A DNA stretch of 64,000 nt from Clostridia bacterium (GTDB lineage: Bacteria > Bacillota > Clostridia > Oscillospirales > CAG-382). The stretch lies in assembly GCA_017625615.1 (NCBI GenBank), contig JAGAKP010000015.1, positions 15,146 through 79,145 of the forward strand, read 5' to 3'. The position numbers and the translations under genes are program-made. The notes under the pieces were generated by a model, which was not told where the DNA came from, made no database searches, and was given only the letters and a program-made list of their open reading frames with translations. Shown piece by piece: positions 2,376 through 64,000 of this stretch. The number at the start of each line of letters is the position of its first letter. Within the stretch, counting starts at the first letter, position 1.

Positions 2376-3884
2376 ATGAAAAAGCTGATATCACTGTTAC
2401 TTATCCTCGTTATGCTGCTTCCCGCAGTGGTCGCCTGCGGCGGGAACGAAACCGTAAGCGAGCCCGAAACGAGCAAGCAGGAGCAAAGCGCTCAAAGCGA
2501 GCCCGACGAGGAAAGCCTTGTTCCCGACGAGAGTACTCCCGACGAGAGCACTCCCGAAGAAAGCACTCCCGATGAAAGCGTTCCCGAGGAAAGCAAACCT
2601 GAGGAAAGCAAACCCGAGGAAAGCGTTCCCGAAGAAAGCAAGCCTGAAGAAAGTGTTCCGGAGGACGACCCTGTGAAAGAAAAAATAAACGCGGCTTTAA
2701 ATAAGCCTTATACCAGATCCGAGCTGTATCCCGGAAATTCCAACGCAACCTACCCCGACGAGGGCAACAAATCTATGACCGACGGCGAGATCGCGCCCGA
2801 GGGAGCAAAGTACAGCCACAAGGCGTTTATGGGCTTTAACAAAAACAGCTCCGATTACACCTCCAGAGGATACGCATACGTAAGCATTGACCTTGGCGGG
2901 CTGTATTCTCTTGATAAATTCGTGGTTCAGGTAGCGTCCGCGTATTACGAAAGCGTTGGTATAACCGCGCCTCAGTACGTGGATATAATGGTTTCTCACG
3001 ATAACCAGAATTGGTACCACGCAGGCAGGACCTCTCACACCGATACCGACGAAACAAACGTTATCCCCTCTACCCTTCAGCTCGATAAGGCGCTTACCGC
3101 CCGTTACGTTCAGTTCAGAGTGGTAGGTCAGAACAGTTGGATGTTCCTTTGCGAGGTTGAAGCGTACGGATACGAAACCGACAAGGAGGTTGCATACCCC
3201 GAGTCAGCCCCCGCGCAGTCCTTCCTCTTTATCGGTAACAGCAGTACCTATTATTTTGACGTACCCACCAAGTTTATGTTTATTGCGGAAAGCGTCGGCA
3301 TTGACGTGGACGTTACCTACTGCTGCGTAGGAAGCGCATTCTTAAGCTATTTTGCAGATGCAAACGATGCAAAGCACGGTAAGGTTTTGAGACAGCATCT
3401 TGCTTCCCAAAAGTTTGACCATATAGTTTTGCAGGATAACTCCAATGCGGACTACGAGGATTCCAAGCCCGCTATGGATATTCTGGTGCCCATGCTTCGC
3501 GAGACCGGCGCAACCCTTCATCTCTACAAGCGTTATTCCTCCAATTCCGATCCCTCCAAGCGTCTTGACAGCGCCTACAGGCACGAGGTAAACTACACCA
3601 AGCTGTCCCAGACCTTTGATATTCCTCTGGTTGCCCCCGGCGCAGACGCGTTCCTTATCTGCTCCGAAAAATATCCCGAGCTTGTTATTTATCACACCGA
3701 TAACTCTCACCATTCCGACCTCGGCGCATATCTCCTTGCCTGCGTTATGGCGATAACTTATCTTGATATCGACCTTGACGACGTCACCTATACCGCCGGC
3801 TACGATGCAACCACCGTTGCAAAAATAAAGGAATGTGCCCGCATCGCCTGCGAACAGGGCTACGATTATCCTCAGGATAAATAA
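2376..3884 (+). CDS. Lipoprotein with acidic pentapeptide linker, discoidin-like module and DUF4886/SGNH-like hydrolase domain
   Basis: GGAGG Shine-Dalgarno before ATG 2376. Lipobox VVAC. (D/E)ES(T/V/K)P repeats. An F5/8-type-C-like module ends in FLCEVEAYG. A GNSSTYY motif is followed by an SGNH-like domain. Confidence 0.7.
   Translation: MKKLISLLLILVMLLPAVVACGGNETVSEPETSKQEQSAQSEPDEESLVPDESTPDESTPEESTPDESVPEESKPEESKPEESVPEESKPEESVPEDDPVKEKINAALNKPYTRSELYPGNSNATYPDEGNKSMTDGEIAPEGAKYSHKAFMGFNKNSSDYTSRGYAYVSIDLGGLYSLDKFVVQVASAYYESVGITAPQYVDIMVSHDNQNWYHAGRTSHTDTDETNVIPSTLQLDKALTARYVQFRVVGQNSWMFLCEVEAYGYETDKEVAYPESAPAQSFLFIGNSSTYYFDVPTKFMFIAESVGIDVDVTYCCVGSAFLSYFADANDAKHGKVLRQHLASQKFDHIVLQDNSNADYEDSKPAMDILVPMLRETGATLHLYKRYSSNSDPSKRLDSAYRHEVNYTKLSQTFDIPLVAPGADAFLICSEKYPELVIYHTDNSHHSDLGAYLLACVMAITYLDIDLDDVTYTAGYDATTVAKIKECARIACEQGYDYPQDK
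2523..2666 (+). repeat. 15-bp tandem repeat encoding about 10 (D/E)ES(T/V/K)P pentapeptides
   Basis: PDESTPDESTPEESTPDESVPEESKPEESKPEESVPEESKPEESVPED is read directly from the ORF. Confidence 0.85.
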
Positions 3885-3887
3885 AAT

Positions 3888-3984
3888 ATCACCCCACAAA
3901 AGGTTTTTTGATAAGTAGGGGCGATTCACGAATCGCCCGCAACAGACGTTACGTATCACGAAAAAACGCTTTTGCGGGGACCCC
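3888..3984 (+). repeat. Intergenic mosaic module X, copy 1
   Basis: ATCACCCCACAAAAGGTTTTTTGATA, then hairpin GGGCGATTC-ac-GAATCGCCC, then GACGTTACGTATCACGAAAAAACGCTTTTGCGGGGACCCC. Near-identical flanks recur at 55853-55948. Confidence 0.8.
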
Positions 3985-4016: not shown

Positions 4017-4115
4017 CCTTTCACTTGCCCGCAGGGCAAACTTCACTTCGTCGACATCGACGAAACTTCACTGCGGTACGCAACTTCACTTGGGCGTAAA
4101 ACGCCCAAACTTCAC
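4017..4115 (+). repeat. AACTTCACT 9-mer / mini-hairpin array (5 units)
   Basis: 9-mers start at about 4017 (degenerate), 4039, 4064, 4082 and 4108. They are separated by the hairpins tgcccgcagggca, tcgtcgacatcgacga, gcggtacgc and tgggcgtaaaacgccca. Confidence 0.85.
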
Positions 4116-4152
4116 CAAAACATTCAATTATAAGTAAAGAAGGGAGCACAAT

Positions 4153-4593
4153 ATGCCGAAAAAGAAAATTATAGTATTATCTATATTCGCCGCAGTTATC
4201 CTTTGTGTCGCAACATTATGCGTATCGGTTTTAATCTATAAAAACAGCTTCCCGAAAATATCACCGGACAAAGTGGAAAAAGTGGTTATTTGGGTTGATG
4301 GACCGACAAAAGATAAAGAGCTGAATCCCCAAGAAACGGAAGCGCTTATAAAAATGTATAATGATTCCAAATACGCAGGCAACGGCAGAGGCGACGGTGG
4401 TACGCCGCAAGTTCAAGCGATAGTGTATTTTACCGATGGTTCTGTTTTACGTATCAGTGAATTTCGATTAATCGATAGAGATATTGAAGTATCTTTAAGC
4501 AACAAAAACGGCATTAAAAAAAGGTGGTTCTATATAAACAACCGAGAACTACTCGATTATCTGACAAGCTTTCGTGCTCCCAACGAAGAATAA
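4153..4593 (+). CDS. Hypothetical membrane-anchored protein (AT-rich ORF)
   Basis: 146 aa with an N-terminal TM helix. GGGAG Shine-Dalgarno upstream. No recognisable domain. Bracketed by inverted AACTTCACT arrays. Confidence 0.55.
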   Translation: MPKKKIIVLSIFAAVILCVATLCVSVLIYKNSFPKISPDKVEKVVIWVDGPTKDKELNPQETEALIKMYNDSKYAGNGRGDGGTPQVQAIVYFTDGSVLRISEFRLIDRDIEVSLSNKNGIKKRWFYINNRELLDYLTSFRAPNEE

Positions 4594-4643: not shown

Positions 4644-4651
4644 GTGTTTTG

Positions 4652-4752
4652 GTGAAGTTTTTGCCTTGCGGGCAAAAGTGAAGTTGCGTACCGCAGTGAA
4701 GTTCGCGCCCAAGGGCGCGAGTGAAGTTGGTTTTGCCGCCAATGCGGCAAAA
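4652..4752 (-). repeat. AACTTCACT 9-mer / mini-hairpin array, inverted copy (4 units)
   Basis: (A)GTGAAGTT at 4652, 4677, 4695 and 4720. Spacers include gcgtaccgc (reverse complement of the left-array gcggtacgc) and tttgccttgcgggcaaa. The array ends in hairpin TTTTGCCGC-caat-GCGGCAAAA, which abuts the stop of the 4753 gene. Confidence 0.85.
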
Positions 4753-5268: not shown

Positions 5269-5745
5269 TCATTTATTTATATGAGAAAAACGCTTTTTTA
5301 TAACGCGGTAGAGGATATATCCAAGACCGCCGCAGGAAACGACCTCCCCTGCGAAAACAGAAAGGTATATTACCCACCAAGCCTCGGTAAAATCGTAAAA
5401 ATAAATAAGCACGGGAGGAATTACCAGCACGTTTGCCGCTATGGGGAACAGCACGCCCAAAAGGATATGCTTTTTTCCGAAGCACATCGTGAGGTATGCG
5501 GCAACGAGGGTGGCGAGAGAGCCGAAGACTATATCCCATATGACCGCGCCCGAAATAAGGTTTGCCAGCACACAGCCGATAAACAGCCCCGGCACGGCGG
5601 CGGGCATAAACACGGGAAGGATGGTAAGGGCTTCCGAAAACCGCACCTGAAACACGCCGATAGGGTTGGGGGAAATGACGGTGAGTGCCACGTACAGCGC
5701 GGCGATTATTGCCGCCTGACTGACGTAAAGAGTTTTGCTTTTCAT
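5269..5745 (-). CDS. queT: Queuosine-precursor transporter QueT
   Basis: 158-aa membrane protein with a QVRFSEALTILP motif. Preceded by a preQ1-I riboswitch. Confidence 0.8.
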   Translation of the reverse strand: MKSKTLYVSQAAIIAALYVALTVISPNPIGVFQVRFSEALTILPVFMPAAVPGLFIGCVLANLISGAVIWDIVFGSLATLVAAYLTMCFGKKHILLGVLFPIAANVLVIPPVLIYFYDFTEAWWVIYLSVFAGEVVSCGGLGYILYRVIKKRFSHINK

Positions 5746-5837: not shown

Positions 5838-5872
5838 AAACGAGAAACGAGGAACGAGAAACGAGAAACTTC
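5838..5872 (+). repeat. Heptamer run (AAACGAG/GAACGAG) x5
   Basis: aaacgag aaacgag gaacgag aaacgag aaacttc. The same CGMGRAA unit recurs inverted at 18957-19005. Confidence 0.8.
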
Positions 5873-18956: not shown

Positions 18957-19005
18957 TTTCTCGTTCCTCGTTCCTCGTTCCGCGTTTCTCGTTCCGCGTT
19001 CCGGG
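18957..19005 (-). repeat. Heptamer run (CGMGRAA) x7
   Basis: The plus strand reads tttctcg ttcctcg ttcctcg ttccgcg tttctcg ttccgcg ttccggg. It is followed by GGGGTCCCC and hairpin GAGAAACC-aaa-GGTTTCT. Confidence 0.85.
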
Positions 19006-19041
19006 GTCCCCGAGAAACCAAAGGTTTCTTGGGGTGGCTTT

Positions 19042-32746: not shown

Positions 32747-33793
32747 TTATTGCTTGATATTGGGGAAAATTACCTCGAACCGACATCCGCCGAGGGAAAG
32801 ATTTTCCGCCGTGACGGTGCCGCCCGCAAGGTCGGTTATACGCTTTACCAAGGCAAGTCCCAAGCCGTTGCCCTCTCCCTTGTGGGAGGTCTCGCTTTGG
32901 TAAAATTTATCGAATATATGCTTTTTGGCGTTTTCGTCTATACCCGCGCCTTGGTCGGACACGGAAAAGACCACGTTTCCGTCCTTTTCGTAAAGGCGCA
33001 CGCGCACCTCGCCGCCCTCGGGGCTGAATTTAATGGCATTATCCAGAAGATTGGTCCATATATGGAGCATAAGGCTTTCGTTGCCGTAGTAATCCACCGT
33101 ATCAAGCTCAACGTCAAAAAGAATGTTTTTCTTTTCCCACTTGGGCTCAAGGTACAGTATGGCGCGGCGTATCTGCTCGTCAAGGCTGTAGGTTGCGCGG
33201 CTTGAGGGAATTGCCTGATTATCCACCTTGGAAAGAAGCAGTATGTTTCCCACAAGGTCGGAAAGGCGCTTGGTGTTAAGCAGTATTTTTTCTACGTATT
33301 CCCTTTCCTCTTCCTCGGAAAGCGTCTCGTCCTGCAAAAGAGTGGCGTAGCCCTCGATGGCGTTAATGGGAGTTTTAAATTCGTGGGAAACGTTGGAAAC
33401 GAAATCCGTCTGCAGTATTTCGGTGGCGGAAAGCTCCTCCGTCATAATATTGAAGCTTTCGTACATTTCCTGTATTTCGCGTATACGGCTGGTGGTGGTG
33501 ACCTTCTTTTTAAGGTTGCCCGAAGCAACCTCGCGCATATTTTTGCTTAATTCGGGTATCTGTGAAAGGAGCCAGCGGTTTAAAAGAAAGGCGCACACGC
33601 TTCCGATACCGCCCGAAAGGACCAATACCCACAAAAGAGGCGAAATATCAAGGTTTATATGGTAGTTTTCAAGCAGAAAGGACACCAGCACCGCCAAGGC
33701 GACGGTGGTGATTATTTCGATAATAACTACCAGCGACAGGTAAAACTGTAAGCCGAAATAGGATCTCAGCCTCTCGCCGTCTATTTTCTTCAT
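32747..33793 (-). CDS. Sensor histidine kinase
   Basis: Two TM helices, a HAMP region, H-box SHEFKTPINAIEGY, then N/G1/G2 boxes (DQGAGI, GLGLAL). Confidence 0.9.
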   Translation of the reverse strand: MKKIDGERLRSYFGLQFYLSLVVIIEIITTVALAVLVSFLLENYHINLDISPLLWVLVLSGGIGSVCAFLLNRWLLSQIPELSKNMREVASGNLKKKVTTTSRIREIQEMYESFNIMTEELSATEILQTDFVSNVSHEFKTPINAIEGYATLLQDETLSEEEEREYVEKILLNTKRLSDLVGNILLLSKVDNQAIPSSRATYSLDEQIRRAILYLEPKWEKKNILFDVELDTVDYYGNESLMLHIWTNLLDNAIKFSPEGGEVRVRLYEKDGNVVFSVSDQGAGIDENAKKHIFDKFYQSETSHKGEGNGLGLALVKRITDLAGGTVTAENLSLGGCRFEVIFPNIKQ

Positions 33794-34461
33794 TCTCTTA
33801 CCACCTTATACCCTACTCCGCGCATGGTTACGATACGGAAATCCTTGTTTTCACGGAAGCGGTCGCGAAGTCTGCCGATATGGACGTCCACCGTGTGGGA
33901 ATCCGAATCAGATTCGTAGCCCCATATATCGTCCATAAGCTGTTGGCGGGTAAATATTCTGCCGGGGAAGGACGCCATTTTGTACAGCAGCATAAACTCC
34001 TTCTGAGGAAGCACCTGCGCTCCCTCCTCTGTGGTGACGGTGAGGGAATCGCACTCCAGCACCGTATCGCCGATAACCAGACGGCGGTCGTTTATCATTT
34101 GCGCGCGGCGGAGAAGTGCGCCTACGCGAAGTACCATTTCGTTTACGTTGACGGGCTTGATCATATAATCGTCACTGCCCGAAAGGAAGCCGAGGCGCAT
34201 ATCGTCAAAGGCGTCCTTTGCGGTTATCATCATTACGGGGGTGGTATAGCCCGCGTCGCGAAGGGAGCGGACGAGCTCGTATCCGTCCACGTTGGGCATC
34301 ATAATATCGGATATGATAAGGTCAAAATACTCTTTTTCCATAGCGTCAAGGGCTTCTTTTCCGTCGGCAACGCCCTTTACGGCATATCCGTTTTTTATGA
34401 GCACGTGTGAAAAAAGTCGGTTAAGCTCTCTGTCGTCCTCTGCAATGAGAATTTTTAACAT
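33790..34461 (-). CDS. OmpR-family response regulator
   Basis: MLKILIAEDD ... ISDIMMPNVDGYEL receiver followed by a winged helix (RGVGYKV). AGGAG precedes ATG 34461. The ORF-track extension to 34614 is rejected. Confidence 0.9.
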   Translation of the reverse strand: MLKILIAEDDRELNRLFSHVLIKNGYAVKGVADGKEALDAMEKEYFDLIISDIMMPNVDGYELVRSLRDAGYTTPVMMITAKDAFDDMRLGFLSGSDDYMIKPVNVNEMVLRVGALLRRAQMINDRRLVIGDTVLECDSLTVTTEEGAQVLPQKEFMLLYKMASFPGRIFTRQQLMDDIWGYESDSDSHTVDVHIGRLRDRFRENKDFRIVTMRGVGYKVVRE

Positions 34462-34560
34462 ACGGGTTCTCCTATTTTTATACGGGTTACAATGATATAT
34501 GCTACCGCAGGAAAATAAAGTAAAATTCAACCGAAAATCAACTATAATTGAACAGTTAGT

Positions 34561-34589
34561 ATTATAACCGCCATATAACAAAATGTCAA
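34561..34589 (-). promoter_or_regulatory. Sigma-A promoter of the response regulator / kinase / ATPase operon
   Basis: TTGACA-17 nt-TATAAT on the minus strand, giving a leader of about 90 nt. Confidence 0.6.
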
Positions 34590-34658
34590 TAGGGAGGCAA
34601 AAACACAAAAACAAATAAAAATCCGCGTATTTTCTCTTTTTTATTATGTATTTTGCCG

Positions 34659-34723: not shown

Positions 34724-36016
34724 ATGATAGTTTTATTTGAAATAGCTGTGGCTCTTTTTGCAGGACTTTTAATGTCCCGTCCCGCAAAGAAGCTCGGTCT
34801 TCCCGCTGTAACGGGATATCTTATAGCAGGTCTGCTTATCGGTCCCTTCGTGCTTGGTCAGCTGGGCATTGAGGGCTTGGGCTTTACTACGAGCGAGCAC
34901 GTTGAGGCACTCGGCGTTATATCCGACGTGGCTCTCGGCTTTATCGCCTTTGCAATCGGTAACGAATTCCGTGTTTCCCAGCTTAAGAAGATAGGCAAGC
35001 AGGCTACGGTCATTGCGATTTTTCAGGCAATAGTTGCCACTATTTTCGTTGACGCGGCTCTTATCGGTCTTCACTTCCTTATGCCCGATAAGCTCTCCAT
35101 CTCAACGGCAATAACCCTCGGCGCAATCGCAACCGCTACCGCTCCCGCCGCAACACTGATGGTTGTTAACCAGTACAAGGCAAAGGGTAAGCTTACCGAC
35201 ATACTGCTCCCCATAGTTGCGTTGGACGACGCTGTGGGACTTATAGTTTTCGCAGTATCCTTCGGTATCGCAAAGGCGCTCAGCTCCGGTGCGTCCCTTT
35301 CCATCTTTACCGTTGCCGTTAATCCCCTTATCGAGATAATCGGTTCTCTGCTTCTCGGCTCCTTGATCGGCGTTATATTCAACTTCTCCGAAAAGTTCTT
35401 CTTCTCCCGTTCAAAGCGTATGTGTATTTCCATCACCTACGTTTTCCTTGCGGTTGCAATATCCAAGCTTCATTTTGCCATCCCCGGCACCGAGCTTGAA
35501 ATAGGCTTCTCTCCCCTTCTTGTATGTATGATGCTGGGCACCATATTCTGCAATCTGTGCGAATTTTCCGAGGAGCTTATGGCTAAGGTTGACAGATGGA
35601 CCGCTCCCCTCTTCGTGCTGTTCTTCGTAATCTCCGGCGCAGAGCTTGATCTGAGCGTGTTCACCGATTGGGCAGTCATCGTCATCGGCGTGGTATACAT
35701 CATCTTCAGAAGCGCGGGCAAAATATCCGGCGCAAATATAAGCTCCAAATTTATGAAGTGCGATCCTTCCATTCAGAAGTATCTGGGCATAACCCTTCTC
35801 CCTCAGGCGGGCGTTGCTTTGGGAATGTCCGTTACCGTTGCCGCTGAATTGGGCGCAGACGGTGCGATCATAAGAAATATAGTTCTCTTTGCGGTTCTCG
35901 TGTACGAGCTCCTCGGTCCTCTTATGACGAAGATAGCTCTTACCAAGGCAGGCGATATAAAGCCCAAAGAATTGCAGCCTGTAAAACACGACAAAAACGA
36001 AAAACCGGTCTGGTGA
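34724..36016 (+). CDS. Cation:proton antiporter (CPA2 / Na-H exchanger family)
   Basis: 430 aa with 12-13 TM helices and an N-terminal LGLPAVTGYLIAGLLIGP motif. Confidence 0.85.
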   Translation: MIVLFEIAVALFAGLLMSRPAKKLGLPAVTGYLIAGLLIGPFVLGQLGIEGLGFTTSEHVEALGVISDVALGFIAFAIGNEFRVSQLKKIGKQATVIAIFQAIVATIFVDAALIGLHFLMPDKLSISTAITLGAIATATAPAATLMVVNQYKAKGKLTDILLPIVALDDAVGLIVFAVSFGIAKALSSGASLSIFTVAVNPLIEIIGSLLLGSLIGVIFNFSEKFFFSRSKRMCISITYVFLAVAISKLHFAIPGTELEIGFSPLLVCMMLGTIFCNLCEFSEELMAKVDRWTAPLFVLFFVISGAELDLSVFTDWAVIVIGVVYIIFRSAGKISGANISSKFMKCDPSIQKYLGITLLPQAGVALGMSVTVAAELGADGAIIRNIVLFAVLVYELLGPLMTKIALTKAGDIKPKELQPVKHDKNEKPVW

Positions 36017-36033
36017 TGGGAACTGTCTAAACT

Positions 36034-36593
36034 GCGCAGACCGAAACGCAAAAAAGACAAATAAAAGTAAGACGAGAGATTTAGTTTATCTCTCGTCTTT
36101 TGTTTTGTTCGGTTTTAGGTAGGAATTTGTAAAAACAAATTCCTTTTTAATTTTTTTGCGTTTCTATAAATTTTCAGTCGGGGGGCAGTACCTTTGTACA
36201 GCACCCCGCGCCTGAAAATTCATTCTGCTTTGTTTATACAGCTCCCTGCTTCAATCAGACTTTTAGTTATTACAGACATTAGTTTCGTGAGAGCGGTCGC
36301 GGCAGGAGCAAGCCCCTGCCCTACGAACACGCCGAAAGTTTTGCGAAAATAACGGCTACAATAACTCAAAGTCTGATTGAACGGCGCGATGGTAAAACGC
36401 TGTAGAAAATGTTTTTTACGAGTGGGGAGCTGTAGTATTCTACTGCCCCCCGAGTAAAAACATTTAGAAACGCAAAATAAAAAGAAACCCGTTTGCGGGT
36501 TTCTACCTTATAAACAAACAAAAATGCGAGAGATTATCTGAAACCTCTCTCATTTGTTATTACGTTTCACACGTCTTTGCGTTTCGATCTACA
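36034..36593. repeat. ~560-bp non-coding imperfect palindrome made of two inverted multi-hairpin units plus a central long hairpin
   Basis: The left unit (36034-36207) and the right unit (36423-36593, inverted) each contain a closing stem GAAACGCAAAA/TTTTGCGTTTC, hairpins A and B followed by T-runs, and hairpin C. A central stem pairs 36250-36271 with 36360-36381. No ORF of 60 aa or more lies within 36061-36553. Confidence 0.85.
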
Positions 36594-36609
36594 GTGCTTT
36601 TACCGAGCG

Positions 36610-37524
36610 CTACAGGAGCCACTGGAGGGCTGCGCCGAATAGCCCGCAGTCGCCTTTGAGTGGTGATATTACTACCTCTGCTTCGGGCAGGAGATGGGGG
36701 CGGAGGCGGGAGAGGAATCCCTCGCCCTCGTTGGTGATGCCGCCCGCGATGATGACCAGCTCGGGCATAAATATCTTCACTATGCTGTCAAGTGCAAGAG
36801 CGAAGTTTTCGAAATATTTATCAAGCAGAAGCTGTGCTATATTACAGCCCCTTTCAGCCGCAATAAAGGCGGTCCGTCCGTCTACGCCGCCGCGCTCCTC
36901 TGCCACAGCCGCAAGAATGGATGCGGGATGGAAGACCACTGCCTCTGCGGTGTTGGCGGTAAGCGCCTTTGCGGAGCAATACTGCTCAAAGCAGCCGTGA
37001 AGTCCGCAGGGACAAGGCTTGGGATCGTAAATATTGATAACGAAATGTCCCAATTCACCCGCTCTGCCGTTTTTACCCGTGAGCAGCTTTCCGTTGCATA
37101 TGATACCGCCGCCGATGCCGGTGCCTACGGTGATCATTACAACGTCCTTCTTGCCTCTTGCCACGCCCGCAAGATATTCGCCGATAACGGCGCAGTTTCC
37201 GTCGTTATCCAGCATTGCGGGGACACCCAAGGCATCGGAAATGCGCTGTGCCAAGGGCAGGTCGCGGAAAGGCAGATTGCCTGCGGTGATAACGATACCC
37301 TTTTCACGGTCGATCCTGCCCGCAGAGCCGATGCCCACGCGCTCGACAGGATAAAGCTCCATGATCTTTTTTGCGGCGGCAATAATATCCTCCACGATAG
37401 CGTCCTGACCTGCGGTCACGCGGGTGCGCACCGAGGTATCGTACACGATCTTTCTTTGTTCGCTGTCAACAACACCGAGCTTAACGCCCGTGCCGCCGAT
37501 ATCTATTCCCAAATAGTATGCCAT
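36610..37524 (-). CDS. ROK-family sugar kinase
   Basis: YLGIDIGGTGVK ATP motif and ROK zinc motif CPCGLHGCFEQY. Confidence 0.85.
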   Translation of the reverse strand: MAYYLGIDIGGTGVKLGVVDSEQRKIVYDTSVRTRVTAGQDAIVEDIIAAAKKIMELYPVERVGIGSAGRIDREKGIVITAGNLPFRDLPLAQRISDALGVPAMLDNDGNCAVIGEYLAGVARGKKDVVMITVGTGIGGGIICNGKLLTGKNGRAGELGHFVINIYDPKPCPCGLHGCFEQYCSAKALTANTAEAVVFHPASILAAVAEERGGVDGRTAFIAAERGCNIAQLLLDKYFENFALALDSIVKIFMPELVIIAGGITNEGEGFLSRLRPHLLPEAEVVISPLKGDCGLFGAALQWLL

Positions 37525-49454: not shown

Positions 49455-50063
49455 TTACTTTTTGTTAAATCTAAGTGCCGACCACATTATTATGATGATC
49501 TGACCGGGTATGCCTACGAGGAACAGCTGCCACATAGGCAAGCCGCAGAGACGCAGGTTTACGTACAGCGCGCCGATAACCGACCACATCAGCAAGGAAA
49601 CGATGGGATAATTCCACTTTGAGGGGAACCACACGCAGTTGAAGATGAGCCACACCACCGCAGAGCAGGGCACGGCGTATACGAAGGCGAGCCAATGGAG
49701 AGTGGTTATTGCGGGCACTGCCTGGAGAATAACGAAAAGTGCCGTCGCGATAAGCCAGACCAGAAAAATGCTCATACCCATTACGGCAAAGCGGTTGCGC
49801 AGTATCCGCTTTTTCTTCGCCTCCTCGTCCTCAACGTTGACAGGTGCGGAGGTATGCTCCTCGGTAACCAGCCAATCCAAGGTAACGCCGAAAAGGTCTG
49901 CCATTTCTTTAAGCACGGTAATGTCCGGCATAGACTCGCCGCGCTCCCATTTGGACACGGCTTTATCCGAATAATTCATTTTTTCGGCTAAGTCGAGCTG
50001 TGTCATTCCCGCAGATTGACGGAGCTGTATTATGTTTTTGGCGATAACGCTTTTAAGTTCCAT
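49455..50063 (-). CDS. XRE-family HTH protein with four C-terminal TM helices
   Basis: NIIQLRQSAGMTQLDLAEKMNYSDKAVSKWERGES HTH followed by a hydrophobic C-terminal half. Start taken at MELK. Confidence 0.75.
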   Translation of the reverse strand: MELKSVIAKNIIQLRQSAGMTQLDLAEKMNYSDKAVSKWERGESMPDITVLKEMADLFGVTLDWLVTEEHTSAPVNVEDEEAKKKRILRNRFAVMGMSIFLVWLIATALFVILQAVPAITTLHWLAFVYAVPCSAVVWLIFNCVWFPSKWNYPIVSLLMWSVIGALYVNLRLCGLPMWQLFLVGIPGQIIIIMWSALRFNKK

Positions 50064-50245
50064 ATAAAAAATCACCGTCGTAATATGTTTACACTACAGT
50101 ATATCATATCACGACGGGATTATCAAGTTTTTTTGCGTTTTTTACTATACGGTTTTCATTAAAAATGTTCGCCATATACGATGCTGCGCTTTAAAAAAAC
50201 AAATCACCACAAAACGACTTTGCAAAATACTCTACATGAATATTG

Positions 50246-50548
50246 TTAAATTATGCCCTCTTCAGCAAGCATAGCAGTATATTCTTCAAACACAGCATCA
50301 ACGATATCGTCGTCTTCAACAATTTCCAAAACATCTTCTCCATCATCTTCTATAATAGCAAAGACTAATGCTTCGTCGTCTTCAACGCCTTCCATCATTT
50401 CGATTGGTTTAAGAATCACGTACATTTCTCCATCTAACGGAATCAGTGCAACCTGCTCAAAGGTAACCGCTTCATCTTCTTCGGTATATAACACTATAGG
50501 ATCAGTGTCGTTGGGATCAAGGATTTGCTCAATTGGAGTTTTTGCCAT
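50246..50548 (-). CDS. DUF1292-like hyper-acidic small protein
   Basis: 100 aa. By my count, 32 Asp/Glu against 2 Lys and 0 Arg. DUF1292-like pattern: VLYTEEDEAVTFEQVALIPLDGEMYVILKP...DDEALVF. It lies 19 nt downstream of the TIR-TPR gene. Confidence 0.7.
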   Translation of the reverse strand: MAKTPIEQILDPNDTDPIVLYTEEDEAVTFEQVALIPLDGEMYVILKPIEMMEGVEDDEALVFAIIEDDGEDVLEIVEDDDIVDAVFEEYTAMLAEEGII

Positions 50549-50567
50549 TGTAATGCTTCATTTCTTT

Positions 50568-53048
50568 TTATGATTTTAAAATCGTTATAGCCTCTTTTTT
50601 CTTTTTTTTGTAAGTTTTGTCATCAGGATACTTTTCTGAAAGCTCAGTCCATATCTCTAAAGCGCTCTCCATTAAGTCGCGTTCTAAAGTTACCATAGCG
50701 AGTTTATAGCAAGAAGCGGCAACTCGAGCATAGCTCGTGTCCGATTGCATTTCTTCACACAATTCAACACACAGATCCAAGTGCTCTTGATAATAGCAGG
50801 CAGCTTCTTCTTTTTTTCCTAACACCTTACTAATCCGTCCAATTGCATCGAGAATTTCGATTTTTACTTTTTTATCTAAATAAGGAGCTTCTTTTTCATC
50901 TACTTTATTATACAATTGGAGAGCAGAAGAATAATAAGAATGCGCAACTTTCAAATCGCGTTTTTCTTTTGCAGTCATAATATATCCGCCGTAAAGTGCA
51001 TCGTCAGGGTCACCGTTTTCGGTTGAATCATAGCACGATGCGAGCGTTGCGTATTGCTCGATCAAATCGTAATACGTCTGTGCGCTCGGATATTCCGAAG
51101 CAATATTCCGAAAAATTTCAAGTGACAGCTCTTGGTACCTTTTGGATTTTCCAGTCAACCACAAACTCTCAAAAAGCGTTCCCATCATCGAGTACATACA
51201 GCCCAACAGTTTTTGTGAATGTATGTTTTTCTCTTTTTTCAATTTGACGGTAACCGAATTAATTGCCTTCCGCATTTGCTTGATGGCTTTTATGGTTTTT
51301 CCTCGACTAAAAAAGTAGTGAGAAAGCATAAGATAATTATCATCATCTTTAGCGTGGGCGAAATTCTTTTCTTTGAATATTTTATCTGCTCGTTTTATAT
51401 ACAGACGTGCTTTTTTTGAATCGCCAAGAACTTTAAAATATCTTCCTATTGTGTCGCACAAATCTATCATTTTTAATGCAGGACCGTCATTGTTTTGCGC
51501 CTTCATTATAATTTCAAGGAAGTCAATAGCTTTGATCAGCGAATAAGCCGCCTCGTTATAATTCTCTGTTTGTTCAAGGCTTTCAGATAGTTCGCAATAT
51601 AAAGTGACGAGATGCCACCTTGTTTTCATCGATCTTTCCTCGTCATAAAGAAGAGATCCGAATTCCACAGCCTTTCTTCTGTATTGTACCGCTTCGGCAA
51701 GTTTATTAAGTTCTGAATAAACTCTGCCAACGTTTCTATAACTATCCGAAAGTAACTCTTTAGAACAGTCAAACTGATCGCACAGCTTATGCGAAATAGG
51801 TATCATTTGCTGATAATAATCCAACGCAGAAATATTATCTGAATTTTCTTCACAAATCATTCCCGCAAGAAGCAGCGCCGTGTAATGGTTAAAATAGCTA
51901 TCCTCATCGTGGTTTGCTTCCAAAGATTCCTTGGTAATATTTATGCTTCGTCTTGCCCATTTTTGGGATTCTTCGTAATCTTTAGATACTTGGTCGCCGC
52001 GGTTATAAATCTTCGACAATTCTTCCGCCGCTTCCGCCACGTTTTCGTTTGCCGCAATTTCAAGCAAAGCTACGGCTTTGGTGGGATTTTTTTCTACGTC
52101 GATTCCCCTCAAATACGCAATCCCCATGAGATATCGATGATGTGATGTGTCTTCTCTTTCCAAACGCGCACTTAACAGATTCAAAAGCGCACCCGAGCGT
52201 GCTCTCTCATCATACGCATCGATGGGGTCTGAAATACCCGGATAATATTTTTTTAAATCGGTTATATCTGTTGGCACTAACTCTGCGGGAACAATGGGTA
52301 TAACATTGTTGGCAGCAGGGTATTCTTCGTCCATAACATAATTTGGTTTTTCCAATACATTGGGTGTTACTGCCAACAAAAACAGGTCGCTTTCGCTCAA
52401 TATGTTACGAATGTTTTTTTCAAAATCATCGCCCGGAACAAGAAACTCGTCATACCAGATGGCGACATTTTCCAACATTTTGTGTTCGTGTATAAGCGAC
52501 ATAATAGCTTGAGCATATTCTCGGTCTTTTTTTCTGTAACTCAAGAAAATCTTTGCATAAAACGCTTTTCGAACTTCATCGACAAGCGAATCATTTGCTA
52601 ATATGGATTTAAGAAAATTCCCCAGTTTTTCCATATAAGGAAGGGCTGTGTGATCATTATCACTCTCTTTTAAAAACTGAATGTTGCCAAACTTCTGTTT
52701 GTATCCTGTTTCTATGTTGTTTTCTTGTACCAACGGCAAAATGGGTATATTATGCTCAATAGCAAACGCAAGATCAAAATTTATGGTTCTATTCTGTGTG
52801 CAAAGAAGCTCTGTCGTGACGGGAATAACAAAAAGATCCATCTGTTTCAGATTAAACCTATACTCATCGTCAGTTGCAACATCACTTTTCGGAGGATAAT
52901 AGTATATCGCACAATCACAAATATCAAAAATTTGGTCAAATATCTTATCGGAAAATTTTTCAAAAGCAGAGTCACAACAAGAAAAATAAACCTTGGCTTT
53001 ACCTCTTGGAGAATCTCCCTTTTTTCTCGTACGCCAACAAATATTCAC
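50568..53048 (-). CDS. Tandem TIR-domain protein with Sel1/TPR repeat C-terminal region
   Basis: GTG start 7 nt after AGGAG. TIR-like module 1 covers aa ~17-110. Module 2 covers aa ~165-260 (KIFLSYRKKD, WYDEFLVPGDDF, SDLFLLAVTPNVL, YVMDEEY). aa ~300-826 are helical Sel1/TPR-like repeats. No P-loop seen. Confidence 0.75.
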   Translation of the reverse strand: MNICWRTRKKGDSPRGKAKVYFSCCDSAFEKFSDKIFDQIFDICDCAIYYYPPKSDVATDDEYRFNLKQMDLFVIPVTTELLCTQNRTINFDLAFAIEHNIPILPLVQENNIETGYKQKFGNIQFLKESDNDHTALPYMEKLGNFLKSILANDSLVDEVRKAFYAKIFLSYRKKDREYAQAIMSLIHEHKMLENVAIWYDEFLVPGDDFEKNIRNILSESDLFLLAVTPNVLEKPNYVMDEEYPAANNVIPIVPAELVPTDITDLKKYYPGISDPIDAYDERARSGALLNLLSARLEREDTSHHRYLMGIAYLRGIDVEKNPTKAVALLEIAANENVAEAAEELSKIYNRGDQVSKDYEESQKWARRSINITKESLEANHDEDSYFNHYTALLLAGMICEENSDNISALDYYQQMIPISHKLCDQFDCSKELLSDSYRNVGRVYSELNKLAEAVQYRRKAVEFGSLLYDEERSMKTRWHLVTLYCELSESLEQTENYNEAAYSLIKAIDFLEIIMKAQNNDGPALKMIDLCDTIGRYFKVLGDSKKARLYIKRADKIFKEKNFAHAKDDDNYLMLSHYFFSRGKTIKAIKQMRKAINSVTVKLKKEKNIHSQKLLGCMYSMMGTLFESLWLTGKSKRYQELSLEIFRNIASEYPSAQTYYDLIEQYATLASCYDSTENGDPDDALYGGYIMTAKEKRDLKVAHSYYSSALQLYNKVDEKEAPYLDKKVKIEILDAIGRISKVLGKKEEAACYYQEHLDLCVELCEEMQSDTSYARVAASCYKLAMVTLERDLMESALEIWTELSEKYPDDKTYKKKKKEAITILKS

Positions 53049-53143
53049 GCTTCGGCTCCTTTAATTAAAATAACGTTTTATAATCAATTTTCAAGAAAAG
53101 CATGTATGTCATAAGCCGGTAGTGATTAATTTTCCGGTATACC

Positions 53144-53692
53144 TTATTTGCTTGACGTTGCTCTTTTATACAAAAACAATAGGGGCGGTGTGTTGTTGCG
53201 AAGTATGAACACGGGGAGCATACTTAAGACAAAATTAACTATCGCCACGGGCATCCACACCCAAAATCCGCCGCAGAAGGGCAGAAATCCGATAACGAAC
53301 CCGCCAAGGGCGTTTACGATATGTATTGCCACGCCGTAATTGGATTCAAGCAAGAAACGGCGGAGGTATTCGGTATCGTCGGTGCTTTGAAGCTTGTCCT
53401 TATGGAAGCCGGTAAATCCGCCGAGCTCGGGCACGAGGACAGTTATTTTTTTAAGCTTTATTTTTGAATAAAACTTTTTTTCTTTTCGGGACACGTCAAA
53501 GGCTTTCTTCCCTGCCGCAAACCATTTTTCGGGCAGACGGCGGATGAGAAACGCCGTTATTCCGTCGTATGCGATGACGGACACGGTGCCGAGGACGGAA
53601 AACAGCAAGATTTTCCAAAAATCGCCGTATGCGATGGCGTTTGCGGTGACGATTATTGCGTTTGCTAACAGGATGACTGCTGTGTAGAACAT
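53144..53692 (-). CDS. Membrane protein, function unknown (possibly CrtO-like acyltransferase fold)
   Basis: Four TM helices with a central basic loop. It overlaps the upstream acyltransferase gene by 28 nt. The family assignment is tentative. Confidence 0.5.
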   Translation of the reverse strand: MFYTAVILLANAIIVTANAIAYGDFWKILLFSVLGTVSVIAYDGITAFLIRRLPEKWFAAGKKAFDVSRKEKKFYSKIKLKKITVLVPELGGFTGFHKDKLQSTDDTEYLRRFLLESNYGVAIHIVNALGGFVIGFLPFCGGFWVWMPVAIVNFVLSMLPVFILRNNTPPLLFLYKRATSSK

Positions 53693-54540: not shown

Positions 54541-55518
54541 TTACACCTCTGCGGGTATTTTTATAACGTGATGGAGGGGGAGCACGTAATTGGGAGAGGA
54601 AGCGCGGGCGGTATCCCTGCGGGCGGTCTCGGCAAGAACGGCGAACTGCTCGTTATCTCTTGCCACGTCAGTTTCGGAATAGTTATCGCGGATGGCGCGG
54701 ATATCCTCGTAGTATTCAGTCATTTTTGCGTAGTGCCAGAAATCCTTTTCGTAGCCGACGCCGTCGTAATGCCAAGGCTTCCAATTTATTTTGAAGTGTA
54801 CGATCTTGGCGGGGTCGCCGTAGGTTTCGCAGGCGGGAAAGGAATTTTTGTTCCAATACTGGGGAAGCAAAAGCACGTTGCCGCAGCACAGCACGTTGAG
54901 GTAATCCTCGTCCTGAGTAACGGTGAAGGTGTACTCACCTATTATGTCCAAAAGGCGGGCTTGCATATCCAGCTTGCGGAAAAGATCGAGATTGAGAACG
55001 AGAACGCCTGCGTTGAAATATGTGTTTCTGCTTATGCCCAGCACCTTTTCCACGTAGGTGCCGTAAACGTCGTAGTTGGTCATAACCTCTTCGTTCATTG
55101 CGGCAACGAGGTTGTCGCCAAGGTCGCAGTTATAAAGTTCGGACACGTCACCGCGGACGATGATATCGCAATCCAGATACAGACCGCGGTGGTAGCCGGG
55201 GAACATATCTGCAATAAGGAAGCGGTAATAGGTCGCCTTGGTATAGTAATCGCGGACGTGGAGGCGGTCGCTCATAATGCGTATCTCCTCCTTCACGTCG
55301 TTGATGATAACTTCAACGTTGGTGGATGAATATTTGGTAAGGCGGGAAACGTTTTGTTCGTTCAGACCCTCGGTGAGTATATGGATACGGTAATAGTAAT
55401 TTTCGGATGCGTTTTGTGTCAGGGACTCAAGTGCCACGCCGAGAAAGGGTGCGTAGTTATCGTCAACAGCGAAAAAGATGGGGATTACGGGAAGTGCCAT
55501 TTTGAAATTGTCCTCCAA
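54541..55518 (-). CDS. Glycosyltransferase family 8
   Basis: IFFAVDDNYAPFLGVALESL N-terminus and a DxD motif (YLDCDIIV). Confidence 0.85.
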   Translation of the reverse strand: MEDNFKMALPVIPIFFAVDDNYAPFLGVALESLTQNASENYYYRIHILTEGLNEQNVSRLTKYSSTNVEVIINDVKEEIRIMSDRLHVRDYYTKATYYRFLIADMFPGYHRGLYLDCDIIVRGDVSELYNCDLGDNLVAAMNEEVMTNYDVYGTYVEKVLGISRNTYFNAGVLVLNLDLFRKLDMQARLLDIIGEYTFTVTQDEDYLNVLCCGNVLLLPQYWNKNSFPACETYGDPAKIVHFKINWKPWHYDGVGYEKDFWHYAKMTEYYEDIRAIRDNYSETDVARDNEQFAVLAETARRDTARASSPNYVLPLHHVIKIPAEV

Positions 55519-55663
55519 ACGATTTTAGTATGGGTTTATTTTACAATATTAATGTAAAAAAAGCAACCTACTGTGGGAAAAAAGCAGTAGAATTTGCAAA
55601 AAACGCCTCTACCCGCAGGAGAAAACGCCGATGAAATCTATGGAACTAAAAGTAGAATGAAAA

Positions 55664-55697
55664 ATACCCCTAAAATGCTTGCGCATTTTTGGGGACC
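55664..55697 (+). repeat. 34-nt hairpin box, direct-repeat copy 1
   Basis: ATACCCCTAAAATGCTTGCGCATTTTTGGGGACC is identical to 56126-56159. The stem CCCCTAAAATGC/GCATTTTTGGGG contains one conserved T-T mismatch. Confidence 0.85.
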
Positions 55698-55749
55698 CCG
55701 AGAAAGAAACACCCCACAGAAAACTGTTTTTGTCCGCGAGGACAAAAAC

Positions 55750-55830
55750 AACTTCACTTTGCGAGCAAACGAGCAAAACTTCACTGCCGTAAGGCAACTT
55801 CACTTTTGCCCGCAGGGCAAAAACTTCACT
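55750..55830 (+). repeat. AACTTCACT 9-mer / mini-hairpin array (4 units)
   Basis: 9-mers at 55750, 55777, 55796 and 55822. The spacers include gccgtaaggc and tttgcccgcagggcaaa. Confidence 0.85.
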
Positions 55831-55852
55831 AAAAAAGTCACCCCGCGAAAGG

Positions 55853-55948
55853 AACACCCCACAAAAGGTTTTTTGATATCTGCGGGTATTTCACGAAATA
55901 CCCCTGCGGACGTTACGTATCACGAAAAAACGCTTTTGCGGGGACCCC
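55853..55948 (+). repeat. Intergenic mosaic module X, copy 2
   Basis: Same flanks as 3888-3984. The central hairpin is GGGTATTTC-ac-GAAATACCC. Confidence 0.8.
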
Positions 55949-56120
55949 ATAAAAGAAACACCCCACAAAACAACGTCAGGTGGGGTTGCGAACAGACAGA
56001 GCGTTTACCGTGATGATATTTTGCGGGGACCCCGAAAAAGAAACACCCCACAAAACAACGTCAGGTAAGGTTGCGAACAGACAGAGCATTTACCGTGACG
56101 ATATTTTGCGGGGACCACGA
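55934..56120 (+). repeat. 85-bp tandem repeat, about 2.2 copies
   Basis: TTTTGCGGGGACCCC starts at 55934 and 56019, with a variant (GGGGACCAC) at 56104. The unit contains AAACACCCCACAAAACAACGTCAGGT(G/A)GGGTTGCGAACAGACAGAGC(G/A)TTTACCGTGA. Confidence 0.85.
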
Positions 56121-56125
56121 GAAAA

Positions 56126-56159
56126 ATACCCCTAAAATGCTTGCGCATTTTTGGGGACC
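56126..56159 (+). repeat. 34-nt hairpin box, direct-repeat copy 2
   Basis: Identical to 55664-55697, 462 bp away. Confidence 0.85.
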
Positions 56160-56166
56160 ACAACAA

Positions 56167-56200
56167 TGAAAGGGCTCCGATCCGTATCGGAGCCCTTTCA
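56167..56200 (-). terminator. Long stem-loop downstream of the dockerin-protein gene
   Basis: Perfect 15-bp stem TGAAAGGGCTCCGAT-ccgt-ATCGGAGCCCTTTCA. The T-run on the minus strand is weak. Confidence 0.6.
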
Positions 56201-56239
56201 TGCTTAAGGGGAGATTATAAATAATTCAGAAAGGAACGA

Positions 56240-62920: not shown

Positions 62921-63637
62921 ATGTCAGGACATTCCAAATGGAAAAATATAATGCACAAAAAGGAAAAGACCGATTCCGCGCGCGCAAAGGTCTTTACCAA
63001 GATCGGTAAGGAAATGACCATCGCGGTACGTGAGGGCGGTGCCGATCCTACGTCAAACAGCAAGCTGAGAGATCTTATCCAGAAGGCGAAATCTCTCAAC
63101 GTGCCCAACGATAATATTGACAGAGTTATTAAAAAGGCTTCCGGCGCAGACGCGGTGGAATACGAGGAGATCGTGTACGAGGGCTACGGTCCCGGCGGAG
63201 TTGCCGTTATAGTTGAGGCGGCTACCGATTCCCGTAACCGCACCGCCGCTGACGTAAGACATTATTTCGATAAGTTCGGCGGAAACCTCGGTACTACGGG
63301 CTGCGTATCCTTTATGTTCTCCTCCAAGGGTGTTATTTACATTCCCTCCGAGGGTCTGGACGAGGACAAGGCTATGGAGGACGCACTTGAATGCGGCGCA
63401 GAGGATTTCGTTCCCGAGGAGGATATGTTCGAGGTTTATACCGATCCCGCCGACCTCCGCTCCGTTGCGGACGCGCTGACCGAAAAGGGATACAAGTATG
63501 AATCCGCCGAGGTGGAGAAGATCCCCGCAAACTACGTCACCCTCACCGACGAGGATCATCTGGTAAAAATGCAAAAGCTCCTTGATGCGCTCGACGACAA
63601 CGATGATGTGACTCAAGTATACCACAACTGGGAGTAA
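62921..63637 (+). CDS. yebC: YebC/PmpR-family transcriptional regulator
   Basis: MSGHSKWKNIMHKK N-terminus and the conserved YEGYGPGGVA motif. Confidence 0.9.
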   Translation: MSGHSKWKNIMHKKEKTDSARAKVFTKIGKEMTIAVREGGADPTSNSKLRDLIQKAKSLNVPNDNIDRVIKKASGADAVEYEEIVYEGYGPGGVAVIVEAATDSRNRTAADVRHYFDKFGGNLGTTGCVSFMFSSKGVIYIPSEGLDEDKAMEDALECGAEDFVPEEDMFEVYTDPADLRSVADALTEKGYKYESAEVEKIPANYVTLTDEDHLVKMQKLLDALDDNDDVTQVYHNWE

Positions 63638-63659
63638 ATTGATGCGCATTTAGCATTCG

Positions 63660-64000
63660 GCGCAGATCGAAACGCAAAAAATTATTAATCCGTAATAAAT
63701 AATGCGAGAGATTATAGTTTATCTCTCGCATTGTTGTTTATTTATAAGGTAGAAATCCGTAAAAGTACGGATTTCTTTTTATTTTGCGTTTCTAAACGCT
63801 TTCGGTCGGTGGGCAGTAGATGTCTACAGCTCCACACGCCCGAAAGACGTTTTCTGCATCCAAATGCTTCAATGCGCTCTTCGCTGACGGGGGTTGGGTG
63901 CGAACAGTTCGCGGGCGCATCGTGATGCGCCCCTACGGTTATCGAATACCCGCGGCGTGTATGTAGGGCGGGGGTTTACTCCCGCCGAACACCAATATTA
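63660..64000 (+). repeat. Third copy of the multi-hairpin unit seen at 36034-36593 (truncated by the window end)
   Basis: GCGCAGATCGAAACGCAAAAAA; hairpin A TGCGAGAGAT/ATCTCTCGCA; hairpin B AGAAATCCGTA/TACGGATTTCT; TTTTGCGTTTC; hairpin C GTGGGCAGTAG-atgt-CTACAGCTCCAC; then TGCTTCAAT... as in the central part of the palindrome. Confidence 0.8.

Follow-up and report, generated by a model that had tools for sequence, protein, structure and literature searches.

An apparent 560-bp palindrome between convergent genes of a gut Clostridia bacterium consists of two copies of a structured, multi-copy intergenic repeat with terminator-like hairpins

We analyzed a 64,000-nt stretch of a Clostridia bacterium genome (Oscillospirales, CAG-382; assembly GCA_017625615.1, contig JAGAKP010000015.1, positions 15,146 to 79,145), referred to here as the window. 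Its largest intergenic gap (36017-36609) lies between convergent open reading frames (ORFs) for a Na+/H+ exchanger and a ROK-family protein, and a previous sequence-only reading described this gap as one imperfect palindrome of about 560 bp that folds into a rod. We found that the palindrome is not a single entity but two convergent copies of a ~230-nt repeat unit, one for each gene. The unit, which we named M1, measures ~230-260 nt and contains five helices arranged as P1[ P2[hairpin A, hairpin B] hairpin C ]. We favor, with a probability of about 0.6, the interpretation that M1 is a lineage-specific, modular, multi-copy repeat similar to bacterial interspersed mosaic elements (BIMEs), enterobacterial repetitive intergenic consensus (ERIC) sequences and BOX elements, and that it acts as a terminator cassette.

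Results

Each gene of the convergent pair is followed by its own M1 unit

The exchanger (antiporter) gene occupies 34724-36016 on the plus strand (Pfam PF00999, E = 4.9e-33) and the ROK-family gene 36610-37524 on the minus strand (PF00480, E = 2.4e-55). The ORF list, from which both genes are taken, contains no ORF of at least 60 aa lying wholly within the gap, in agreement with the sequence-only reading. The 593-nt gap sequence is identical base for base in an independently assembled contig from another sample, and is therefore not an assembly artefact. A third contig agrees with it up to a break inside the second unit, and no strain-level variation was found across the gap in these independent assemblies.

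Unit 1 (36018-36246, plus strand; nhmmer E = 1.7e-63, covariance-model score 234 bits) has an alpha-type P1 that begins 1-2 nt after the antiporter TGA stop codon (36014-36016). The closing stem that had been proposed for this arm, here called P2, is complementary at 13 of 13 positions (36043-36055 with 36152-36164). The three hairpins proposed with it are also present: A at 36069-36099 and B at 36121-36144 (36121-36130 with 36135-36144), each followed by a T-run, and C at ~36166-36223 (36166-36185 with 36204-36223, plus an apex). Unit 2 (36385-36609, minus strand; nhmmer E = 8e-71, 240 bits) has a beta-type P1 that immediately adjoins the ROK TAG stop codon (36612-36610). It is the inverted counterpart of unit 1 with different stem sequences, as had been noted, with P2 strands at 36585-36576 and 36477-36467, hairpin A at 36549-36528, hairpin B at 36504-36483 and hairpin C at ~36465-36407. 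Both units proved larger than first described. In a 25-copy alignment, conservation extends past the original limits, and a 5' segment beginning at the stop codon forms base pairs with one that lies past hairpin C. The resulting outer stem, P1 (~22 bp), encloses P2 and hairpin C and pairs 36018-36040 with 36224-36246 in unit 1 and 36609-36588 with 36406-36385 in unit 2.

Most M1 copies, at unrelated loci, carry a 3' extension of the form GCTTCAATCAGACTTTnAGTT..TACAGAC directly after P1. The corresponding module in the window (M4, TTCAATCAGACTTTTAGTT..TACAGAC) is found at 36248-36287 on the plus strand after unit 1 and at 36344-36381 on the minus strand after unit 2. These extensions meet head-to-head and form an inverted repeat, the left and right arms of the central stem. 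That stem exists as proposed, except that it spans 38 nt rather than 22 nt, with 84% complementarity (36250-36287 with 36344-36381) around a GGCAGG..CCTGCC hairpin. The apical hairpin is a small module (36296-36330, minus strand) that resembles repetitive extragenic palindromic (REP) sequences and consists of CGTAGGG, the GC hairpin and GCGAC. It is similar to window sites at 3915, 63936 and 63963 and to copies in L009, L014, L026, L038 and L069, where the prefix L denotes sampled loci outside the window. What had appeared to be a separate conserved core of ~200 nt is made up of the P1 3' strands, the two head-to-head extensions and this small GTAG-hairpin.

The window contains three M1 copies detectable with nhmmer. 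The closing-stem motif recurs within the third, at 63669/63782. Unit 3 (63644-63877, plus strand) starts 6-7 nt after the TAA stop codon of a YebC/TACO1 gene (62921-63637) and is followed by TCTTCGCTGACGGGGGTTGGGTG and then by GTAGGG-hairpins at 63936 (minus) and 63963 (plus), with modules continuing past the end of the window. Outside the window, nhmmer and covariance-model searches recovered many further copies. There are ~40 covariance-model matches of 45-277 bits in eight related metagenome-assembled genomes (MAGs) of gut Clostridia/Eubacteriales. We also ran a pattern scan over one genome per species and tested the matches by nhmmer; true copies were limited to Clostridia/Eubacteriales/Oscillospiraceae MAGs from the guts of ruminants and other animals. 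Pattern matches in Streptomyces, Chloroflexota and other phyla, together with two on viral contigs, were chance hits that nhmmer did not confirm, and annotated plasmids and phages showed no similarity to M1 by blastn.

All copies fold alike. Their conserved bases are mostly in stems, and the loops and junctions have little conserved sequence. At least four unrelated P1 types occur, termed alpha (GGAACTGTCTAAACTTCGCAGA), beta (CGCTCGGTAAAACACTGTAGA), gamma (GAGCGGCTCATTCGGCGCAGAA) and YebC type, and the 5' variants are accompanied by their matching 3' variants.

The M1 structure covaries and folds locally

Folded as RNA, the gap has a predicted energy of -233.4 kcal/mol, compared to -140.7 ± 6.9 kcal/mol for dinucleotide shuffles (z = -13.5). 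The minimum free energy (MFE) structure consists of three local domains that are more stable than arm-to-arm pairing. The local and rod folds reach -233.4 and -217.9 kcal/mol as RNA, and -141.1 and -114.2 kcal/mol with DNA parameters, and forcing the rod costs ~15 and ~27 kcal/mol, respectively. These values bear on the possibility that the entire ~560-bp palindrome is functional, whether as a long hairpin RNA, a DNA cruciform or an insulator between convergent operons. In its favor, a 75-nt stretch of the two arms is 75% complementary, the central stem spans 38 nt, the rod-only fold still reaches -218 kcal/mol, and convergent pairs recur in L012, L019 and L034. However, local folding is preferred with RNA and DNA parameters alike, the arms are different sub-variants with different stem sequences, and the spacer between paired units ranges from ~30 nt to 1.25 kb. 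Moreover, single and tandem units exist, and L009 carries a gene between the arms. We consider a role for the whole palindrome very unlikely.

Compensatory changes were far more frequent than in shuffled controls. RNAalifold analysis of 22 copies identified double changes at 27 of 45 predicted pairs. In a MAFFT alignment of 22 copies with a 77-pair consensus, 90.5% of cells were paired, and 36 pairs showed double changes, amounting to 165 alignment cells. Shuffled alignments gave 52 ± 6 cells and slid controls 8-34, and none of 500 shuffles reached the observed count. A covariance-model alignment of 34 copies gave double changes at 53 of 77 pairs (318 cells), compared to 91 ± 12 cells for shuffles and 20-62 for slid controls, with 0 of 500 reaching the observed values on all five measures. 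P1 covaries at 11 of 12 pairs in this alignment. The support for the M1 architecture equals that of good Rfam families. The suggestion that the element goes beyond what a terminator needs holds for the rest of the unit, which is kept by covariation, though not for a separate ~200-nt core. Covariation alone does not reveal whether the folded molecule is RNA or DNA.

M1 corresponds to no known RNA family. Rfam 15 gave no matches at gathering thresholds in the window or in eight loci with other sub-variants. When the gap was searched with 4227 models at E ≤ 10, the best sub-threshold match scored 28 bits against a gathering threshold of 60, which is noise. Strong conservation of structure would be expected if each unit were an independent gene for a small RNA, or if it regulated a downstream gene in the manner of a riboswitch. 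Units that start 0-8 nt past a stop codon leave no room for a promoter, though, and a consensus scan found no convincing one. Because the window units converge, no gene lies downstream of either of them, and both the missing Rfam match and the poorly conserved loops and junctions argue in the same direction. Of the alternatives considered here, we regard this one as the least probable.

M1 units follow stop codons and contain terminator-like hairpins

We examined the position of 31 copies relative to co-oriented ORFs of at least 90 aa. In 24 of these, the stop codon of such an ORF either lies no more than 8 nt before the first paired base of P1 or overlaps P1. Two further copies are displaced to 46 nt solely by a 44-nt hairpin element nested in P1. 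Collapsing orthologues and paralogues leaves ~13-14 independent genes. The upstream genes share no functional theme and encode the antiporter, ROK, YebC, triose-phosphate isomerase (TIM), surface proteins and others. No copy adjoins a gene by its 3' side, and two orphan copies (L016 and L012:3922) have no abutting ORF. Gamma units are found after paralogous genes for large surface proteins with a C-terminal '...ALIGTAIVIKKRA*' anchor (L027 2604-2849 and 5134-5379; L026; L038 5511-5760), where the unit has been duplicated together with the 3' end of the gene.

A terminator scan recognized hairpins A and B in both window units, giving five sites compared to 1.4 expected. Across the family, 27 of 30 units have at least one sense-strand hairpin followed by a T-run, and 16 have two. 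The three units that fail the scan are gamma copies with an evident GC stem and then TTATTTTTTG. The terminator pattern is also matched on the antisense strand in 14 units, including at hairpin A of unit 1. Thus, the earlier proposal that hairpins A and B are tandem intrinsic terminators for both convergent genes agrees with the pattern in the window and throughout the family, and we refer to them as predicted terminators. The 3' strands of P2 and P1 and the whole of hairpin C lie downstream of both.

These features raise the possibility that M1 is a functional cis-acting RNA domain of the 3' untranslated region (UTR), selected at the RNA level from the stop codon onward, with its spread being secondary. 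Such a domain could protect mRNA from 3' exonucleases or endonucleases, sense the terminating ribosome, which must melt P1, or tune read-through. Strict co-orientation and abutment to the upstream stop codon, sense-strand terminator hairpins, strong covariation and conservation exceeding that of third codon positions (see below) all fit this model, and GTAG-REPs likewise often abut or supply stop codons (PMC3733652). Wobble pairing gives a mixed picture. There are 63 G.U and 41 A.C pairs overall, and the helices disagree. Hairpin A contains 38 G.U and 15 A.C pairs and hairpin C one conserved G.U, which is the bias expected of sense-strand RNA, whereas P1 leans the opposite way with 5 G.U and 15 A.C. 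P2, hairpin B and lower hairpin C are nearly pure Watson-Crick (6 G.U and 10 A.C in ~690 cells), and so little wobble is atypical of an RNA family. By MFE, the antisense strand folds about as well as the sense strand. Furthermore, the P2 and P1 3' strands and hairpin C would be present only in read-through RNA, and neither the diversity of upstream genes nor the orphan copies are readily accommodated. We therefore view selection of the whole unit as an RNA domain as unlikely. We infer instead that hairpins A and B function at the RNA level, as terminators, and that the remaining scaffold is under constraint either on both strands or as DNA.

M1 units are restricted to a narrow clade and turn over at orthologous sites

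M1 units occur singly, in tandem (L027, L038, L069) and as convergent pairs (the window, L012, L019, L034 and L009), with spacers of ~30-95 nt between the convergent units of L019, L012 and L034. In the syntenic locus L009, whose flanking genes are ~84-86% identical to the window in nucleotide sequence, the antiporter and ROK genes are 1.5 kb apart and a 350-aa gene (2857-3909) lies between the units. Its product has no Pfam match; by eye, the N-terminus resembles small Mor/CD3324-type DNA-binding proteins rather than a transposase. Contigs of close relatives break inside units, which is the behavior expected of repeats. A metagenome scan with the ROK protein, aimed at orthologous empty sites, found a single close relative, whose 1.1-kb contig breaks within the unit; the other matches were distant paralogues of at most 36% identity.

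In a sister lineage (83-84% protein identity), the YebC site is instead occupied by a plain GC-rich terminator, and the covariance model detected no unit across ~20 kb. A 73% relative has none either. M1 units thus take the place of ordinary terminators in a narrow clade.

Orthologous units at the ROK site are somewhat more similar than third codon positions (0.84 vs 0.76, and 0.988 vs 0.907), indicating that they are maintained or homogenized rather than decaying. The sub-variants nevertheless differ between genomes. The ROK site has a beta unit in the window and alpha units in L009, L032 and L035, and the antiporter site has three stop codons (TGA, TAA and TAG) and three unit subtypes in three genomes. 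At the YebC site, hairpin B, hairpin C and P1 all differ between genomes whose proteins are 97% identical, and TIM-site orthologues likewise carry different sub-variants. Segment alleles occur in all four combinations (four-gamete test), and the L026 unit is a chimera of a gamma 5' strand and an alpha 3' strand with a broken P1; both observations point to recombination among copies. Simple gene conversion is an awkward explanation because the exchanged P1 5' strand adjoins unique coding sequence, and for this reason we speculate that units move as cassettes.

Synteny breaks past the YebC unit and a TCTTCGCTGACGG segment when L075 (3255-4636) is compared to L069 (1140-2800), although YebC is 97% identical. 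Beyond the break, one genome has an AI-2E transporter and the other has phage- or mobile-like DUF6809 and HTH_3 genes. M1 units may mark hotspots of recombination or integration.

We also considered whether M1 is a classical miniature inverted-repeat transposable element (MITE), in which P1 would represent terminal inverted repeats, the DDE transposase of a resident insertion sequence (IS) would act in trans and the terminators would be incidental. M1 is shorter than 600 bp, multi-copy and intergenic, its ends pair through P1, and it is present in some lineages and absent from others; in addition, three units demonstrably contain another, smaller hairpin element inserted within them. The pattern of conservation is, however, the opposite of that expected for a MITE, because the interior is conserved and the termini are the least conserved part, with at least four unrelated covarying P1 types (alpha, beta, gamma and YebC type). 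No target-site duplication was seen between the 5' flank (stop codon plus 0-8 nt) and the 3' flank, where the true 3' end is ambiguous and where many copies carry a conserved extension. Orientation is non-random relative to genes, copies are maintained, and we found neither a transposase or IS in the window nor similarity to plasmids or phages. A MITE origin thus appears improbable.

Other repeat modules and genes in the window

Small hairpin modules form mosaics in further intergenic regions of the window as well. Densely packed, modular repeats between genes are therefore characteristic of this genome, just as BIMEs are of E. coli. A ~90-nt module with four ACTTCAC(T/C) 8-mers spaced ~25, 18 and 26 nt apart is found at 4040-4116 (plus), 4651-4727 (minus) and 55751-55830 (plus). 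The 8-mers, of which there are 13 matches compared to 2.4 expected, are separated by variable, perfectly palindromic mini-hairpins. The first two modules are inverted and flank an ORF (4153-4593, 146 aa) with no Pfam match. The same arrangement, built with CATATCACG, lies downstream of units in L038 and L026.

The small hairpin element is ~40-45 nt long, with the form (A/T)CACCCC..stem-loop..GGGGACCCCGA(T), and occurs in the window at 3889-3978, ~3992, 18995-19040, 55660-55720 and 55934-56160. It is nested inside the M1 units of L013 (~2575-2620), L030 (~3215-3260) and L038 (~5385-5430), twice in P1 and once between hairpins A and B, and these three different positions demonstrate that it is mobile or insertional. 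One window copy carries a GTAGGG-hairpin in its loop. The REP-like module comprises (C/T)GTAGGG, a GC-rich hairpin and CGC(G/A)AC in either orientation and sometimes as inverted pairs. Examples are found at 3915 (plus), 36324 (minus), 63936 (minus) and 63963 (plus) in the window, at ~3918-3965 in L009 and at 1191-1217 and 1430-1456 in L069. The module sometimes replaces hairpin A (L009:2495, L030:3198, L024 and L012:4240). The number of GTAG-hairpins in the window was not significant (5 vs 2.9 in shuffles).

Heptamer micro-repeats, (AAACGAG)n / (CTCGTTC)n and (TCATTCC)n, are located beside convergent-gene terminators at 5838-5869 and 18960-19002 in the window and downstream of units in L030, L005, L016, L035, L038 and L069. 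They are often preceded by a conserved hairpin, ACAATTACACGGTTTTTTGCTCCGCAAAAAAC, which prolongs the unit 3' extension. The region 55501-56239 (~740 nt) is probably non-coding. Its only ORF encodes 118 aa and has no Pfam match, and the region is a mosaic of the small hairpin element, an ACTTCACT array and an 85-nt tandem repeat (55934-56125) that contains the small hairpin element.

The window otherwise represents ordinary chromosome, with genes for transporters, sugar metabolism, dockerin and F5/8-type-C surface proteins, and ArgS-YebC. None of its 53 ORFs encodes a transposase, integrase or reverse transcriptase. A two-component system upstream of the antiporter gene (histidine kinase 32747-33793, response regulator 33790-34614) is missing from the syntenic RGIG321 contig L034. 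A low-GC island at 50000-53200 (35-39% vs ~50%) encodes an 826-aa TIR_2 and TPR/Sel1 protein (50568-53048, minus strand) next to an HTH_3 regulator (49455-50063); the former may be a defense-type accessory gene.

Discussion

The sequence-only reading offered three explanations for the gap: a structured RNA, a BIME-like element or an old MITE. Our results place M1 closest to the BIME-like option; there is no indication of an old MITE, and known large RNAs are excluded by Rfam. That reading had named a lack of further copies and of covariation as refuting outcomes, and the data clearly show the contrary. In the way it works, M1 is closest to repeats of the REP/BIME, ERIC or BOX type that also serve as 3'-end elements, yet it belongs to none of these families. 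As with REPs and BIMEs, M1 units are multi-copy, extragenic and palindromic, form mosaics with short motifs, often lie in inverted pairs and occupy transcribed 3' regions. The high copy number, extragenic location and inverted doublets that characterize REPs and REPINs are all found in M1. A REP, however, is a single hairpin of 20-40 nt with a terminal GTAG/CGTC tag, and M1 is about ten times longer (~230-260 nt), with five helices and two junctions. The REP signature is seen only in the small GTAGGG and GC-hairpin module of the gap core (36296-36330). Also unlike REPs, M1 units contain canonical terminator motifs and are found strictly 3' of stop codons in sense orientation.

In E. coli, REPs situated no more than ~15 nt from a stop codon have been reported to cause ribosome stalling and reduced expression, which would fit the RNA-domain model. 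ERIC/IRU, Correia (NEMIS), BOX and RUP elements are intergenic repeats of 100-200 nt, restricted to a genus or family, that form long stem-loops when co-transcribed and reportedly affect mRNA stability, processing and termination. BOX elements are modular (boxA-boxB(n)-boxC), with A pairing to C, and Correia and RUP elements have conserved terminal inverted repeats and target-site duplications, which M1 lacks. M1 shows no sequence similarity to ERIC, Correia, BOX or RUP, and none of them is known to abut stop codons systematically or to have a five-helix architecture with such deep covariation. REPs are described as vertically persistent and lineage-specific (bioRxiv 10.1101/2022.05.22.493013), and M1 shares both properties. 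They are also described as being recognized as folded DNA (PMC3479197, PMC8266576), and REPINs as inverted doublets (PMC3337134). The text of the GTAG-REP survey does not mention Clostridia (PMC3733652), the class to which the M1 host belongs. No RAYT (REP-associated tyrosine transposase) or Y1_Tnp gene was found among the 53 ORFs of the window.

Hairpins A and B match intrinsic terminators as patterns, with stems followed by sense-strand T-runs. A terminator needs only one hairpin, however, and P1, P2 and hairpin C add ~150 nt and ~50 bp. M1 also resembles integron attC sites in that structure is kept while sequence varies and the unit starts at or overlaps the stop codon of a preceding co-oriented ORF. 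The attC sites are imperfect palindromes with conserved mismatches that are recognized as folded single-stranded DNA and allow cassette-like replacement. We rejected this identity based on housekeeping genes in conserved synteny (ArgS-YebC, NagA-ROK, TIM), convergent orientations and the lack of a nearby integrase; inspection of the P1 ends revealed no RYYYAAC/GTTRRRY pair corresponding to attC R''/R' core sites. In size, multi-helix form, strong covariation and occurrence in Firmicutes and gut metagenomes, M1 is comparable to ROOL, GOLLD, OLE, raiA and HEARO RNAs. It differs in being multi-copy, probably with dozens of copies in each genome, in having its conserved bases in stems rather than junctions or loops, and in matching no Rfam model. 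Group II intron fragments, retron msr/msd, rolling-circle single-strand origins and Obelisk- or viroid-like rods were rejected on inspection, because of the housekeeping synteny, multi-copy chromosomal location, absence of associated genes and lack of Rfam matches. Literature searches found no description of M1 or an equivalent.

In the terminator-cassette model that we favor, each M1 copy would be the 3'-end cassette of the preceding gene, starting at its stop codon and being co-transcribed with it. Hairpins A and/or B with their T-runs would end transcription, in some units probably from both directions. Two convergent genes with one cassette each would then produce the apparent 560-bp palindrome, with the rod as a by-product. 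P1, P2 and hairpin C could provide a folded scaffold for copying, replacement or recognition of the unit. By analogy to REP/BIME-RAYT systems, IS200/IS605 ends and attC sites, this scaffold would most likely be folded single-stranded DNA or a protein-bound set of hairpins, and it may also form a fully structured 3' UTR in read-through transcripts.

Several considerations weigh against the terminator-cassette model. Hairpins A and B are assigned as terminators by their sequence pattern, and the wobble bias of hairpins A and C suggests that at least part of the unit may have an RNA-level role. A purely selfish DNA model does not explain the strict placement at stop codons. The window encodes no mobilizing enzyme, though 64 kb says little about the rest of the genome. 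We also found no clean pair of filled and empty sites with sharp boundaries, the only empty orthologous sites being too diverged. Finally, the sampled loci were retrieved with a pattern inside the unit, which biases copy density outside the window.

Whole units are replaced at orthologous sites while the 5' boundary stays at the stop codon, and this hints at cassette exchange; a boundary at the stop codon provides no flanking homology for ordinary gene conversion. We tentatively raise a further idea, which we think doubtful, that M1 is either an orientation-specific terminator cassette set 3' of stop codons by a structure-recognizing enzyme or a large, translation-coupled RNA domain of the 3' UTR. 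In the first case, P1, P2 and hairpin C may form a folded single-stranded recognition scaffold, and in the second, the terminating ribosome may open the outer helix.

M1 is a well-supported addition, from uncultured gut Clostridia, to the structured intergenic repeats represented by REP/BIME, ERIC, BOX and Correia elements. It is much larger and more intricate than these, and its covariation is deeper than that of most candidate structured RNAs. M1 units break metagenomic assemblies, with several contigs ending inside them, and may be misread as new large RNAs or as giant palindromes. With the covariance model built here, annotators could mask such units or label them. With its consistent start at stop codons, built-in predicted terminators and cassette-like replacement, M1 offers a tractable system in which to ask how such repeats spread without an obvious transposase, and whether they are selfish or have been domesticated as the 3' ends of genes.

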